Shown here: positions 3,001 through 9,000 of the stretch, piece by piece
Position numbering within the stretch: the stretch's first letter is position 1
Layout: every line of letters begins with the position of its first letter
Assembly: GCF_057098645.1 (NCBI RefSeq)
Contig: NZ_CM169472.1
DNA length: 64,000 nt
Strand: one strand, 5' to 3'
Position numbers: made by a program

Positions 3001-6000
3001 ATTTTTCGCCATCCTTGTCGGTGAAGAGGAAGTAGAACGGCCCCTCACGCTCTACAGATGGTTCGACTTCCACTTTGCATTCGGTTTTTTCGTTGTCCGG
3101 AATTGCCGTTTCCACTGCATCAGTTTCTGGTACTGGCGACGAGAGAGTATCAGTTGCGCTCTGATTTGTTCCTTCATCTTCAAACACGCCCTTTGTAGTC
3201 AGGTATTCAGTAATGTATTTGTTCAGTGCCACAGGGTCTTTGTGAATGTCGATCGGACGTTCACGGACAAGGCCAAAAATAGTCTGGCGGTCGTAGCGAA
3301 GGGCATCAGGCTGTTTGCGCATTGATGCCGAGATACGCTTCCAGTCTTCGCGGTCGTTGTCGATAACTTCATTTTTTGCCCAGCGATGGATGCTGCCGTC
3401 AATGTTTCCGGCATCCACATCACCAGGCCAGAGAGCGTAGGCCAGTTCGTCATCCAGTGTTTTCCATGTCTGCTTGTATTCGCGATGAATGGCAGCAATG
3501 ACCGGGCTGATTTTTCCTGTTGAATTTTCAGTGTGCTGTTGATTGGTTCTGGCGCGGGCGAGATCAACAACAGACGTGTATTTTCCGGTTTCTTTGCGTT
3601 CACCTTCGCGACGTTTTTTCCAGATGCGCATCTCTGCCTGAATTTCGGGCCATTTGGCACCAGGCTTACATTTATGCTTAACCCACCCGATGGCATGCAG
3701 CTTAAGCTCCGGATACATGGCGTTAACTTCTGGCATTTTCATCAACGCTTCAACGATATGTCCGTCGAATGTTGCCATGTCTTCCTGCAACAATTCCTGT
3801 GCGCTAATAACCATATCAACGGTGATGTTTTCACATGTGTCGAACTTAACCATGACAGCGTTCTGTACTTCAGGGGCCAGCTTGTCAAAAGTGACGTTCA
3901 TCGGATCTGATTCAGTCTCAACCGGAACAAAGGAAGCAGACTCCTCATCCCAGCGGTTTTCCTGCATATATTCAGCATCCCATGAATCGAGGGCAGGGCG
4001 GGGTATGCCAGGTTTATCCTCGCAGATAATAAATTTATAAGCGCAGTCCTGAGCAGCCGGATAATGTTCCAGGAATTGCCAGTGAAATTTTGCTCGAGCA
4101 CGGCGTTCGTCGCCAGCTTCAATAGCTGTGGCTACAGCCACAGCGCCTTCTTCCCTTGTTGCCAGTTCGTCAGGAATGGCGGCGCAAATAAAGACTTTAC
4201 TCATTTTGTTTTAACCTCATGACAGATTTAAGGATGAACAAATCCCTGCCATTGCTGGCATATAAGAATGAAACCGGATATTTATTACGGAACTGTTTTA
4301 AAGACCTGCCGGGATTTCGATATTATCCTAGTGAATAACTTTATCGACCGGGTAACAGTTACCGGGAATTTTCTGTTCGGTTGCTGCAGTCATACACTCC
4401 TGCATTGTCCTGTGAACACTGACTGCAATATCAACTGGCTCTCCGGAAACAAGAAAAACTGTCAGAACAAGCGCAAATGCTGAATTCATTGTGCACATCC
4501 TTTTGGCATCAGACGTAAACGAGCCAGCATTGAAACAATGCATATTTTATTTAATAGCTCCCGTTCTTGTTTTCTCTTGTTAATGGCATCTTCAGTAAAT
4601 ACAGGGTTACTGATAGTGACACCAATTTCAAAACAACCTTCAGACGTATTAACGTTTGGTAATAACGTTTCCATTATCTCGTCCTCAACAATGAATTTTT
4701 AGTAATTGCTCCACAGTCATATTTTTAATTGCGCTCCGGTTTACAAGAGTCCAGCCTTGTTTCTCCAGATAAAACTGGAAGGTATCCAGGGTGCAGACCA
4801 TTGCGCCGTCCGGAACGGTTTCAGTGAATTTGATATTGCCGTGTTCGTCGAGACGGATAACCAGGGTACGTCCGTCCCCGTGAATCATTTTGTCGGGAGA
4901 CGGGGCGTTATTCTGGCGCAGTTCTTTCTCCATGCGATCGAACTCAGCGATGTAGGCTTCTTTAAATGCAGCGGCTTTTTTGCCGGTGAAGCCCATCACC
5001 AGGAAAACGAAGCCGTTTTTGGTGATTTGGTACATTGGGAGTTTGCGACCGGTTGAGTCGGTATATTCGCTCGACACAAAATTGTGCTCAGTGAATTTTG
5101 CTGAACAGTCCAGATTGCGAATTTTATCCAACACTCGTTCGTGGCGTTTACCAAAGAACTCAGCGATCGCAATAGACGTAGTGACAGCGCGTCCATTTTC
5201 GATGGTTACGTCAGGGTGAGAAAGGGTATGGATAGTAGCCATGATGGCAGCCTCGATAGTCAGTTTAAATAACTCACCACCAAGGCTTTCCACGACCATA
5301 AGGGTGGTGAGACGTACAGGGGTGGAAATACCGGTGACTACCGAAACCGGCCAGCCTTTCGGCTGCCCTGCACGCCCCACCATAATCTGAATGTGGCTGT
5401 GCATTACGCATAAAAAAACCGCATGAGCGCGGTTATGCGCAGTAGTCATCATCGGGTTTCCACGCCCGGCACCCGCTTTATGAGGTGCAGGTGCACTATA
5501 ATTCCACCCGTTCTGGTTTTCAATAGCTACATTCAACATTTTCTCTTACCCTTCATCACCGAAGTGAACTTTGTTGATGCAGTGCCTGGTGCCTCCAGGT
5601 GACGTTAACCAGTTAACAATTAACGCCGGATACAGAGAATCCAACCATAACACTGTTTTTGGTTTTAACTGTTCCGCGTGCGCTTAGCCGCATTCACCGC
5701 ATCACAAAATTCACTTTAAAAAGGGCGGCAGAGCAGTCACGGAGTAAAACTGATACCGCCAAACGTCACCAGAAAATTGATAACAGAGGGCGTTGCAGCG
5801 GGGTTGTCACTTAAGCGTATGGTCAACCTGACAACCCGGTGTCCTCAACGGGGGAAGGAATAACCCCGCCATACTTACCGCCGCGCCATTTCGCGGATTG
5901 CCACAACCGGAAGCGCACGGTCGACGAAAATTTAACGACAGGCTATCTATGAACCAGCTACCTCGCCGTGCGCTTTCGCGTTATGGTCTGACTTTTCAGG

Positions 6001-9000
6001 GAAATATCCTTTCAGTAAACTGTCAGTGTCGGATGCTCACCCGTGTCCGGCGCACGCACTCCACCTCACCCGTGGAGAACTCCTTAATTACCAACCTTAG
6101 CTTCGTTGGTTAGCTATTAACGCGGGTATGTAATCATTCTGGCAATGCTTAATGCCGCTGCTTTTTCCAGATTGGTGATATCCTGCTCCAGAGCGGACAG
6201 ATTTTCAGCCTGCTTAGCCCTGGCTTCATTAGCCCATTTCAGATCCTGCGCTGCATTAATTTTCTGGCGCATCCACTCATAAAGTTCATCATCGGTATAG
6301 TCTGGCGCGATGATGACGGGTTCTCGTTTCTGCATACTGATTCCTCGCGGTGCTGTTTCGCTTATCAGCCGTTAGATTTTGCCGAACTGGAAAGCGCCTG
6401 TTTAAACTCACTGAAGCTGAGAGCTTCTTCGCCTTCGGCAAGGCCTTCGAAGTATTCTTCGTAAGCCTTTTCCATGATTGTGTCGAAATCCATATCACTC
6501 ACCTGAGTTTCTTTCCAGCCAGCGACGGGCACCATTTTCGGTTTTAAACGTTTTGCTTTTGGTATACGTCATTGCGGTGAACGTGCCGTCCTGGTTTGGA
6601 AACACGCCGTACACCAGAGATTCGTTGCTGCCAAGATCGATAGTATCCATGCTGACCTCATTTCCCCTTAACGCCGGAGTAGCGGAACTGTTTGCTGAGA
6701 ACACCGTGCGGTGTCTTGATGAGTGAAATTTAGAATAACCTAAGGCATATGGTCAAGATTTTTATGTAGAAAAACCTAAGTTTTTTTGGTGTAAAAAACA
6801 CAAGTGTTTGAAAGTTTGTGCTTTTTATTACAGGGTGTGGAGAAAAAAGGGGGTTATTTGTTTGCGCTTCTTTTGCGAGCTTTAAGTAGTTCTTCAAAAA
6901 GTTTGTTGAAATTTTCAACTCGAGCACGCATCTCTGACAACAGAGCCTTTTGCTCTGACTCAGGCAGTGCGTCGAACAGTTGAAGCAACTCTTTTTGATC
7001 TTCTGTCAGATTGACTGGCTGATTATCTGGGATCGGTTCGCCTGGTTGCTTATCTTCATCTCCAAAAAGAAGCCAAGTCGGCGAGCACTGAAGCGCCTGG
7101 CTCAGTGCGAATAATCTCTTCCCCGCTGGCTGTGTTTCATCTCTTTCCCATTGAGAAATTGTTACGTGAGCCACTTTGACCAGCTTACCTAATGCGGCCT
7201 GAGACAGTTTTAATTTTTTTCGCCTGTATAAGAGGCGAGCACCGAAGGTTTCGTTTTTCATATTAGGTAATTCTAATTTTTCTTGACTTAGGTTTCTCTA
7301 CGATCTAGTTTCCTTAGGAAAATCTAAGGGGTTCGATATGTTGAAAATTGATGCTATAGCGTTTTTTGGCAGCAAAACAAAGCTTGCCAATGTCGCAGGA
7401 GTTAGGCTGGCAAGCGTTGCTGCATGGGGGGAACTGGTTCCTGAAGGTCGCGCGATGCGCCTGCAAGAGGCATCCGGCGGGGAACTTCAGTACGACCCCA
7501 AAGTTTATGACGAATATCGTAAGGCAAAGCGGGCGGGGCGGTTGAACAATGAAAATCACCACTGAACAGGTTTGTGAGGCTCTGGATACCTGGGTATGCC
7601 GACCAGGAATGACACAGGATGCAAAATGGCATCTGAATCGATCGCAGTTTGGCATTCGAATCGATCATGATTTGGCATCCATCTCCGATCACAGTTTGGC
7701 ATCACAATCGATCACGATTTGGCATGCTTCCGATCATTGATTGGCATCCTGCCAGTCACTCCGGGAATTAACTCTTTTCACCACAGTCTCCATTGCCGTG
7801 TTTAAACCAGTGGAGACGTCAATGTCCAGAAAGAGAAAATCCAGGAGCACTATGGAAACCTGTTTTAAGATCCTTCAGCTCAAGTTCGACAAGAAGCTGA
7901 CTAACCGTTGTATCGGACTGACGTTACACATCAGCGCCTCAACCGTTTTTGAGGTTCTTGCCCGCTTCAAAGCCTCTTCTCTGTCATGGCCATTACCTGC
8001 TGATATATCCCATGACACGCTGGAGAAACTCATTTTTCCGCCCAAAGACACCTTTGCATCAGAGCTTGTAATGCCTGACATGTTGTACTTCGATACGGAA
8101 ATGAGAAAACCAGGTGTGACGCGGCAACTGTTGTGGATGGAATACAAGGCACAGGCGGGTAACAAAGCGATGGGATACTCGCACTTCTGCCGTTGCTACC
8201 GGGAGTGGAAAAAAACGCGACGTCTCTCCATGCGCCAGGAGCATCGTGCCGGCGAAAAGCTTTTTATCGACTTCTGTGGTCCTACGGTTCCTGTTATTAA
8301 TCCGGACACCGGTGAGATACGCCGCGTGGCAATCTTCGTGGCCGTAATGGGGGCGTCCAACTATACCTACGTTGAAGCGTGCGAAGGTCAGGACATGATG
8401 TCATGGTTAAATGCCCACAGCCGTTGCCTGACCTTCCTGGGCGGCGTACCGAAGCTGCTCATCCCCGATAACCTCAGAAGCGCAGTGAAAAAGGCCGATC
8501 GATATGAGCCTGTCATCAACGACAGTTATCAGGCACTGGCTGAGCACTATGGCACGGTTATCATCCCGGCCCGACCACGCAAACCTAAAGATAAACCAAA
8601 AGCAGAAAACGGCGTCCTCATCGTTGAACGATGGCTTCTTGCCCGCATCCGTAATGAAACCTTCCACACGCTCAGGGCGCTGAATGCGCGCCTTAGGGAG
8701 TTACTGACAGACATGAATAACCGGCCAATGAAGGGGTACGGCAATCAAACCCGTGCAGAACGCTTCCGCATACTGGATGCGCCAGCACTCTCTCCGCTGC
8801 CTCTGGCACCTTATGAATACACGGAATACAAAGCTGTGAAGGTTGGCCCTGACTACCACGTTGAATATGCCCGTCACTGGTACTCCGTTCCACACGAACT
8901 GGTCGGTCAGCGTCTGTCACTGAAGGCGGGGCAGTCGGTGGTACAGCTCTGGCACAAGGGGCAGTGTGTGGCGCAACATCCGCGCAGCACACATGAATAT

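Follow-up and report, generated by a model that had tools for sequence, protein, structure and literature searches.

The stretch of DNA analysed here (the window: 64,000 nucleotides (nt) of contig NZ_CM169472.1, RefSeq assembly GCF_057098645.1) contains a Qin-type dicBF operon in which a segment holding a promoter, two RNA elements and a Rha-family gene lies between DicF, a small RNA (sRNA), and the gene dicB. The genes ydfA, ydfB, ydfC, DicF, dicB and ydfD follow one another on a single strand, co-linear with the Qin prophage of Escherichia coli K-12, and dicC, divergent from dicA as in K-12, is the only element of the module on the plus strand (Table 1). The gene order is completed by a promoter-like sequence between dicA and ydfA that is probably the counterpart of dicBp, its position agreeing with that of K-12 dicBp upstream of ydfA (PMC10448788). 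An earlier reading of this DNA from the sequence alone (hereafter the original prediction) had recognised DicA- and DicC-like regulators, ydfA-, ydfB- and ydfC-like open reading frames (ORFs) of 51, 42 and 72 amino acids (aa), DicF at 5723-5775 on the minus strand, and a 62-aa DicB. All of them are borne out: the NCBIfam models for DicA and DicC both score over their cutoffs, the three Ydf products have PHROG matches between 1e-27 and 1e-39, DicB is recognised by its own family model, and DicF, placed by Rfam at 5723-5774, is identical to the K-12 copy over all its 52 nt. Annotations were taken from strain C325, whose RefSeq-annotated locus is 99.3% identical to ours. The flanks from ydfA to DicF and from dicB to ydfD are 97-100% identical to K-12, and the start of ydfD and the stop of dicB share an ATGA overlap. 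Some parts do differ from K-12: DicA is only 62% identical, the rem-like gene is reduced to a 28-aa fragment, and ydfD is shortened by a TAG codon (4328-4330) in place of the K-12 CAG, so that it encodes 53 aa instead of 63 aa, a truncated 162-nt coding sequence (CDS) that is also annotated in C325 and in E. coli O145:H28 RM12761. Downstream, the early-left operon continues with a gene labelled 'exonuclease' in C325, where xis and int come next. Apart from the short spacing between DicF and dicB, which it lacks, the locus is in every way a genuine dicBF operon of the Qin type.

Table 1. Features of the dicBF operon and of the segment within its dicB leader, from dicC to the exonuclease gene; positions are those of the window.
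Feature	Position	Strand	Evidence
dicC (Cro-like regulator, 75 aa)	7338-7565	+	NCBIfam NF007282 DicC, 167.6 bits (cutoff 130); 82% identity to K-12 DicC
dicA-family repressor (135 aa, short, Gifsy type)	6854-7261	-	NCBIfam NF007257 DicA, 241.6 bits (cutoff 101)
Candidate dicBp (pL-like) promoter, TTGACC-18-TAAATT, between dicA and ydfA	6727-6756	-	Consensus scan, 9/12
ydfA (DUF1391, 51 aa)	6495-6650	-	phrog_751, 1.7e-35; RefSeq annotation in C325
ydfB (42 aa)	6365-6493	-	phrog_2061, 1.3e-27; annotated in C325
ydfC (72 aa)	6117-6335	-	phrog_1744, 1.6e-39; DNA 100% identical to K-12
DicF sRNA	5723-5774	-	Rfam RF00039, 76.7 bits (gathering score 48), E ~1e-15, full length 1-52
Proximal dicF-dicB leader	5566-5722	-	97% identity to K-12 along the entire length; shared with K-12 as far as the left junction
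Candidate promoter P_isrK, TTGAAA-17-TATAGT	5495-5523	-	10/12 consensus matches
IsrK-like sRNA	5412-5488	-	Rfam RF01394, 63.6 bits (gathering score 50)
C4-like antisense RNA (equivalent of the Gifsy-1 STnc1160/orf45 region)	5300-5387	-	Rfam RF01695, 79.3 bits (gathering score 45), model 1-87
Conserved AUG at +106, Rha frame, no stop between	5381-5383	-	12/13 homologues, always in the ant frame
Downstream C4 target sites b2 (5287-5293) and a2 (5248-5263)	5248-5293	-	RNAduplex
Rha-family gene, putative antirepressor (185 aa)	4685-5242	-	TIGR02681, 109.9 bits (cutoff 45.95); Pfam PF09669
dicB (62 aa)	4486-4674	-	NF049927, 133.7 bits (cutoff 100); 98% identity to K-12
ydfD (DUF1482, 53 aa)	4328-4489	-	phrog_1092, 1.4e-30; tblastn and alignment
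Exonuclease (RecE-like, 823 aa), next early-left operon gene	1733-4204	-	Partial NF007259 match

The distance between DicF and dicB, about 1 kb according to the original prediction and short in K-12, is 1048 nt from the end of DicF to the dicB ATG in the window, compared with 174 nt in a K-12-type Qin locus (L003). A global MAFFT alignment with K-12 placed the left flank wrongly, and the junctions were taken from the BLAST blocks against L003, which stop at 5565 and resume at 4699 with an overlap of 8 nt. They bound a segment of 865 nt (4700-5564) that has no counterpart in K-12 Qin, contains the whole cassette described below and ends some 25 nt before dicB begins. An imperfect 8-nt direct repeat flanks it (AAAGTTCA and AAAATTCA), which is compatible with insertion here and with deletion in K-12 alike. 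The last four codons of the Rha gene and its stop fall in DNA common to the K-12 dicB leader; the dicB ATG, preceded by its own Shine-Dalgarno sequence (GAGGA), lies 10 nt past this stop, and because we found no terminator-like site in these 10 nt the co-transcription of rha and dicB envisaged in the original prediction is plausible. The same prediction had the gap filled by a Rha-family ORF at 4685-5242, seen as a moron inserted into the operon. A Rha gene is indeed present and the segment is extra relative to K-12 Qin, but it also holds a promoter, an IsrK-like sRNA, a C4-like RNA and target sites for the latter, and it is neither a single ORF nor a one-off insertion. Morons are recognised by a promoter and a terminator of their own; here the promoter is present, and the sole convincing terminator is internal, after IsrK.

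Part of the leader that K-12 and the window have in common (5570-5711) resembles the central portion of the prophage sRNA family STnc100 at a level under threshold (33.5 bits, gathering score 47, E = 8e-5), which suggests that the DicF-dicB leader is a structured RNA related to STnc100. In C325, among other strains, PGAP calls a 'partial DicB' pseudogene upstream of the Rha gene. We considered it as a possible duplication of dicB and rejected this: the sequence is the ordinary dicB leader, which in K-12 can be read from an upstream GTG in the frame of dicB.

The extra segment begins with the candidate promoter P_isrK, the top-scoring sigma-70-like promoter of the interval 4200-7700, whose -10 hexamer stops 7 nt short of where the IsrK match begins; a -35/-10 pair occupies the equivalent position in all homologues, with differing hexamers. 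The IsrK-like sRNA ends in an intrinsic terminator detected by terminator scan (stem 5417-5434 followed by a run of seven T) and carries two sites, a1 (5440-5448) in the spacer before the terminator and b1 (5457-5467) in the loop of hairpin 2. The Rfam c4-a1b1 model matches the same region weakly (5449-5501, 24.6 bits against a threshold of 46.7). The C4-like RNA presents its a' site in a loop (5335-5343) and its b' site as a single strand (5318-5328), and the 264-nt stretch 5488-5225 folds far more stably than shuffled sequences (z = -6.5), the C4 fold being recovered in its minimum-free-energy structure. Further downstream, the a2 target site covers the Shine-Dalgarno sequence GAGG of the Rha gene (5251-5254), 7 nt before the ATG at 5242. 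The whole region aligns with the experimentally studied isrK-orf45-anrP locus of the Salmonella prophage Gifsy-1 (L018), including an invariant AUUAUGGUGGGG that contains the first orf45 AUG and the GAGG...AUG of the downstream gene. The segment has the structure of a C4/immI-type cassette and equally that of an IsrK locus.

The pairing between these sites was followed in 13 homologues, 70-100% identical, from E. coli prophages, Shiga toxin (Stx) phages, mEp460-like phages, the Salmonella phage sal3 and Gifsy-1. In the IsrK:C4 helices, which join b1 with b' and a1 with a', 92.7% of the alignment cells are paired as against 67% in shuffled data, and the proportion falls to 36-49% when one partner is slid by 1-3 columns. 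As many as 13 of the 20 pairs have changed on both sides, and the covariation score (0.677 vs 0.173) was reached in none of 500 shuffles. The pairing determinants vary between phages, yet they change in concert, with at least four different a-site specificities across the loci situated in early-left (pL-type) operons. Pairing of C4 with its downstream targets was scored sequence by sequence with RNAduplex because a 3-nt indel shifts the register of b2 between specificity types, which makes column-based pair counting unsuitable. Both the b':b2 and the a':a2 duplexes were found in 13/13 homologues, with a mean energy of -32.8 kcal/mol for cognate combinations and of -22.6 kcal/mol (standard deviation 4.6) for non-cognate ones; the cognate complementarities of the window itself amount to -30 and -33 kcal/mol. 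The a2 site spans the GAGG Shine-Dalgarno sequence in the window, as it does in the other 12 homologues. These comparisons show that the a/b pairings of the cassette family are under selection.

A single large CDS has nevertheless been drawn over these RNA elements. RefSeq annotates a 284-aa 'Rha family phage regulatory protein', and the original prediction had likewise noted that the Rha ORF is open to 5539. The frame is open, and it is so across the RNA genes in 13/13 homologues (from -362 in the pR-type loci described below), which is why annotators call long proteins of 340-383 aa elsewhere, but the extension consists of the RNA genes and carries no codon-position signal. Nucleotide diversity at the three codon positions is 0.34/0.27/0.51 in the Rha ORF, a coding signature, whereas it is flat across +106 to +246 (0.27/0.29/0.28) and lacks any third-position excess across isrK (0.24/0.24/0.19). 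Since the leader is flat by codon position and its substitutions are RNA-compensatory, we conclude that the protein under selection is in all probability the 185-aa product starting at the ATG at 5242. The leader does contain a conserved AUG at +106, which corresponds to the first orf45 AUG (+107) of Gifsy-1; in the window, as in 12 E. coli and phage homologues, it shares its frame with the downstream gene and no stop intervenes. By analogy with Gifsy-1 orf45, its role is probably to bring ribosomes to the Rha start. A 45-aa ORF (5274-5411) that might have been taken for the orf45 equivalent was discarded, being missing or without a start in the close relatives L005, L016 and L017.

The extension is matched by protein families. 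The Pfam family PF10554 ('Ash protein family', Phage_ASH) aligns with residues 14-108 of the long ORF (5e-19, positions 1-104 of the 107 of the model), that is, with nt 5500-5216, the isrK and C4 region, and phrog_995 also covers the extension. The 'Ash family' and long 'Rha family' CDSs that RefSeq and phage records show over C4/IsrK loci may largely be translated RNA genes.

The 185-aa protein has an N-terminal Phage_pRha domain (109.9 bits with TIGR02681; 1.1e-30 with PF09669), and its C-terminal 90 aa match phrog_2379, the family of the Gifsy-1 antirepressor AnrP (6e-9). It was examined as an orthologue of AnrP, an assignment that we do not retain: BLASTP aligns only 75 residues with 23% identity (E = 0.005), the weak similarity is C-terminal, and the N-terminal domain of AnrP is ORF6N instead of Phage_pRha. 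Whereas the RNA leader is homologous to that of Gifsy-1, the effector is thus a domain-shuffled relative. Both P1 Ant and Gifsy-1 AnrP are under the control of C4/IsrK leaders, and this context makes it most likely that the Rha-family protein also acts as an antirepressor.

The arrangement is not confined to the window. Among 5426 complete E. coli genomes, the whole 3.2-kb module is found at ≥80% coverage in only nine, because its dicA/dicC and ydf parts are mosaic, but the cassette alone is present at the same coverage in 393 genomes with 82-100% identity. With a query running from DicF through the leader into the beginning of isrK, 415/5426 genomes show matches across the left junction. On the right, the Rha C-terminus is joined to dicB in 252 of the 4233 genomes with dicB, and to kilR in 118 of the 1960 genomes with kilR (Rac-like prophages). 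The unit formed by DicF, the leader and the cassette therefore occurs in about 5-8% of complete E. coli genomes, roughly 1 in 14. The reverse case, in which the spacing with a Rha gene would be the common arrangement of Qin-like operons, does not hold, as ~94% of the dicB-bearing genomes are without the cassette and most of them lose homology precisely at both junctions. All nine pL-type loci that we inspected have the order (DicF)-leader-P_isrK-IsrK-C4-rha, followed directly by dicB or kil/kilR and then by an exonuclease gene or recE. Among them the leader and the promoter are 95-99% identical, isrK and C4 81-90%, and the Rha N-terminal domain 76-95%. A core beginning exactly at IsrK +1 is found at other positions in 950 E. 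coli genomes and in about 160-216 phage records. It lies in pR operons, between cII-like and replication genes, in mEp460, e14-like prophages, Stx1a/Stx2 phages, sal3 and 1720a-02, and downstream of Q in Gifsy-1. The arrangement seen in the window is a recurrent mosaic variant and not a unique event, and the distribution of the core indicates that the cassette is a mobile regulatory module, with the window as one of its recurrent landing contexts. We found no mention of a Rha/antirepressor gene or of IsrK/C4 inside dicBF or kil operons in the searchable literature, which does not cover older subscription papers; in the literature found, the arrangement is previously undiscussed, though it is auto-annotated in hundreds of RefSeq genomes.

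Two of the related loci deserve separate mention. In E. coli O145:H28 RM12761 (L004, NZ_CP007133.1, 3175-5342) the locus is otherwise 99.9-100% identical to the window, and the Rha gene is split by an insertion of an insertion sequence (IS) of the IS3 family; PGAP names the upstream fragment 'ash family protein' and the downstream one 'Rha family transcriptional regulator'. This split gene is a natural knockout of the cassette gene that can be used for comparison. In E. coli O157:H7 Xuzhou21 (L002, NC_017906.1, 4589-5663), two unrelated hypothetical genes are found between ydfC and the DicF region, and the DicF-like sequence, 93% identical over half its length, does not reach the gathering score of Rfam. 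Mosaic replacement appears to have a general hot spot between ydfC and dicB.

Among the closest known systems is that of Gifsy-1, studied by Hershko-Shalev et al. 2016 (PMC4825925): there, IsrK acting in trans turns on the translation of orf45 and anrP, the latter more than 100-fold, and the prophage is induced by AnrP. The RNA leaders of both can be aligned through the IsrK hairpins, the terminator, the AUG at +106/+107 within the C4-like fold and the GAGG-AUG; both have a promoter of their own at the equivalent position and an IsrK complementary to the orf45/C4 region, and in both the downstream gene belongs to families labelled as antirepressors, the C-terminal domain of the window protein matching the AnrP PHROG. 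They differ in the N-terminal domain of the effector, as mentioned above, and in the upstream ORF, which is fused in frame to the gene in the window but ends in an AUGA overlap in Gifsy-1. Their location also differs: the cassette of the window sits in the early-left operon between DicF and dicB, whereas that of Gifsy-1 is downstream of the late antiterminator Q. We identified no isrJ-like element at the window cassette, unlike in Gifsy-1.

In the immI region of P1 and P7 the order is a1b1 - c4 - a2b2 - icd - ant (Rfam RF01695 and RF03163, clan CL00128). The window resembles P1 in having an upstream a1b1, a C4 with a' and b' sites, and an a2b2 that overlaps the ribosome-binding site controlling the antirepressor gene, and the several interaction specificities of the family are reminiscent of the heteroimmunity of P1 and P7. 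In both cases a cell-division inhibitor is associated with the cassette, icd in P1 and dicB or kilR in the E. coli loci, but there is no icd homologue in the window, the peptide of the upstream ORF is without codon-position signal, and the division inhibitor of the window is a separate gene downstream of ant whereas P1 icd is upstream and overlapping. Further differences are that a1b1 forms a discrete terminated sRNA (IsrK) in the window, that a Rha-family protein takes the place of P1 Ant, and that the window carries a chromosomal lambdoid prophage instead of a plasmid prophage. The CI RNA of P4, with its seqA/seqC targets, and sar-ant of P22 also place a lytic or antirepressor function under RNA-RNA control on the same transcript. 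P4-type CI RNAs are included in the C4 family and appear as 'ash family protein' annotations over C4 matches; P4, however, regulates replication genes via transcription termination, and P22 sar is a true cis-antisense RNA without the a/b site architecture. In contrast to K-12 Qin itself, the dicB leader of the window holds an 865-nt cassette with its own promoter, whereas the K-12 dicBF operon has no internal promoter (PMC10448788).

We consider that the DNA between DicF and dicB is probably an autonomous RNA-gated cassette of the P1 immI/Gifsy-1 isrK type, lodged in the 5' leader of dicB within a lambdoid prophage that resembles Qin. In such a cassette P_isrK would drive the short, terminated IsrK-like sRNA, and read-through transcripts would continue into the C4-like RNA. 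Once processed from these transcripts, C4 would pair with a2/b2 and leave the Rha gene untranslated, and the resulting Rho-dependent polarity could lower the transcription of distal genes. Free IsrK, or a1b1 in cis, would compete for a' and b' and open the region, allowing ribosomes that start at the +106 AUG to read in frame into the Rha gene. The Rha protein might then act on the DicA-type repressor or on the repressor of a co-resident prophage. DicA has no RecA cleavage site and is relieved in K-12 by the antirepressor Rem, the K-12 dicBF operon also undergoing stochastic derepression (Ragunathan et al. 2023, PMC10448788). The rem-like gene of the window has been cut down to its initial 28 codons, and therefore an antirepressor embedded in the operon is plausible as an alternative trigger and positive-feedback element: the derepressed dicBp would feed back on DicF, the Rha gene and dicB. 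Because dicB follows directly, without a terminator-like site in the gap, it would receive transcription from P_isrK as well as from dicBp, behind the RNA switch.

Several points weigh against this interpretation. Promoter activity, RNA processing, read-through into dicB and antirepressor activity are all things that we infer. A single scheme uniting P1 and Gifsy-1 is not established, C4 being the repressing element in the P1 model and IsrK the activating one in Gifsy-1, where in addition no repressor role was found for STnc1160 (PMC4825925). The protein has an N-terminal domain unlike the ORF6N of AnrP and a full-length similarity to it as weak as E = 0.005, and databases label 'Rha family' proteins as transcriptional regulators as often as antirepressors. 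Finally, the prophage is damaged (IS21 directly behind dicC, IS3 within the rem-like region, ydfD truncated), and the cassette could be idle. We regard as doubtful the stronger proposal of a functional link between the cassette and the division-inhibitor genes dicB and kilR. It starts from the ~370 E. coli genomes in which DicF-leader-P_isrK-IsrK-C4-rha stands immediately upstream of one or the other of these two unrelated inhibitors, without an intervening terminator, echoing P1, where icd and ant share the control of C4. Under this proposal the cassette would provide a second, repressor-independent and condition-responsive promoter, C4 and Rho would gate the distal early-left genes (dicB/kil, exonuclease, xis and int) even after DicA has been lifted, the a/b alleles would serve as RNA-level 'immunity types' among co-resident prophages, and Rha would close a positive feedback on DicA.

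Other explanations treat the segment as an ordinary gene. It might be a passive moron, a lone Rha gene without control elements of its own and expressed solely by read-through from dicBp, as suggested by the frame that is open from 5539, the single 284-aa RefSeq CDS and the lack of a terminator before dicB. This is very improbable, given that the 300 nt that would encode its N-terminal part hold two RNA genes with significant Rfam scores, a strong promoter and a terminator, display covariation of RNA type without a coding signature, and precede antirepressor genes in many phages at other positions. Even harder to credit is an Ash-Rha fusion of 284 aa (or 232 aa) as the true product, with the matches to isrK and C4 a mere by-product of coding conservation. 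The Phage_ASH and phrog_995 matches (the former at 5e-19 over residues 14-108) and the ant frame open through the RNA region in 13/13 homologues speak for a fusion, but an open frame is also what is expected if ribosomes travel from the +106 AUG to the start of ant. Moreover, +1 to +246 is flat by codon position, in contrast with the third-position excess of Rha, the substitutions compensate one another in RNA helices, transcripts from P_isrK would exclude the ATG at 5539, and the Gifsy-1 upstream ORF is in another frame and encodes a peptide whose sequence was reported not to be conserved (PMC4825925).

Two other alternatives accept the cassette and question its activity or its history. It could be an inert relic in a decaying prophage, kept intact by recent descent alone; the IS21 element beside dicC, the IS3 element near the rem-like gene, the premature stop of ydfD and the Rha gene split by an IS3 element in RM12761 fit this picture. 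We find it unlikely, as the promoter (10/12), the terminator, the C4 element (79 bits), the a/b complementarity and the complete Rha ORF are all intact, and the compensatory diversification of alleles across genomes requires ongoing selection on the family. A more serious possibility, although one towards which we do not lean, is that this family of early-left operons had the cassette ancestrally and that K-12 Qin is a deletion derivative, nothing having been inserted in the window. In Rac-like prophages DicF (90%), the leader (90%) and the cassette (81-95%) are co-linear and similarly divergent, which points to a long association; the K-12 flanks are 97-99% identical, implying an indel that is recent relative to the divergence of the cassette alleles; and the imperfect direct repeat of 8-12 nt at the junctions could mediate a deletion. 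The repeat, however, fits insertion or illegitimate recombination equally well, ~94% of dicB-bearing genomes are cassette-free, and the homology to cassettes in other contexts begins at IsrK +1, as is typical of a mobile module.

An IS21-family element occupies 7741-10159, with istA at 7741-9387 (NF033546, 284 bits) and istB at ~9380-10159 (NF038214, 257 bits). Homology to the C325 prophage, otherwise 99.3% identical, ends at 7619, and the IS21 element therefore interrupts both the ydaT-like gene and the beginning of the early-right operon; the rest of that operon (a CII-like/YdaT fragment and replication genes) resumes at ~10188. We looked for an intact rem homologue in the window and discarded the only candidate (15068-15151), a 28-aa N-terminal remnant with 57% identity to K-12 Rem beside an IS3-family element. 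The latter abuts the fragment and comprises orfB (15167-16057), orfA (16054-16380) and an ALIL frameshift pseudoknot (15983-16099); a hok/sok module lies next to this region (Rfam sok, 14497-14667). A full-length STnc100 sRNA (17365-17554, plus strand, 147.8 bits) stands back to back with AgvB (17555-17616, minus strand, 96.5 bits), the anti-GcvB sponge sRNA of the prophages of enterohaemorrhagic E. coli (EHEC). The 64-kb window also contains a second RNA-controlled antirepressor module, of the P22 sar-ant type (39146-40092). Its sar antisense RNA lies on the minus strand (Rfam, 66.7 bits, 39146-39212) and its 292-aa Ant gene on the plus strand (39214-40092, phrog_245, 1e-110); the two are directly adjacent, and the module stands immediately downstream from a gene for a minor tail protein (37719-38417).

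Among the products of cryptic prophages that affect host division and metabolism, resistance to phages and the virulence of EHEC, DicF and DicB are the best studied. As regards annotation, the 284-aa 'Rha family', the 'partial DicB' and the 'Ash family' calls at this locus appear to be largely conceptual translations of RNA genes and leaders. As regards biology, a sizeable minority of E. coli, roughly 1 in 14 complete genomes, appears to be wired differently from K-12, with an RNA-gated, self-promoted gene of the antirepressor type inside the operon and linked in transcription to dicB (to kilR in the Rac-like prophages). If this is true, the model of dicBF regulation established in K-12 would not be transferable to the strains that bear the cassette.

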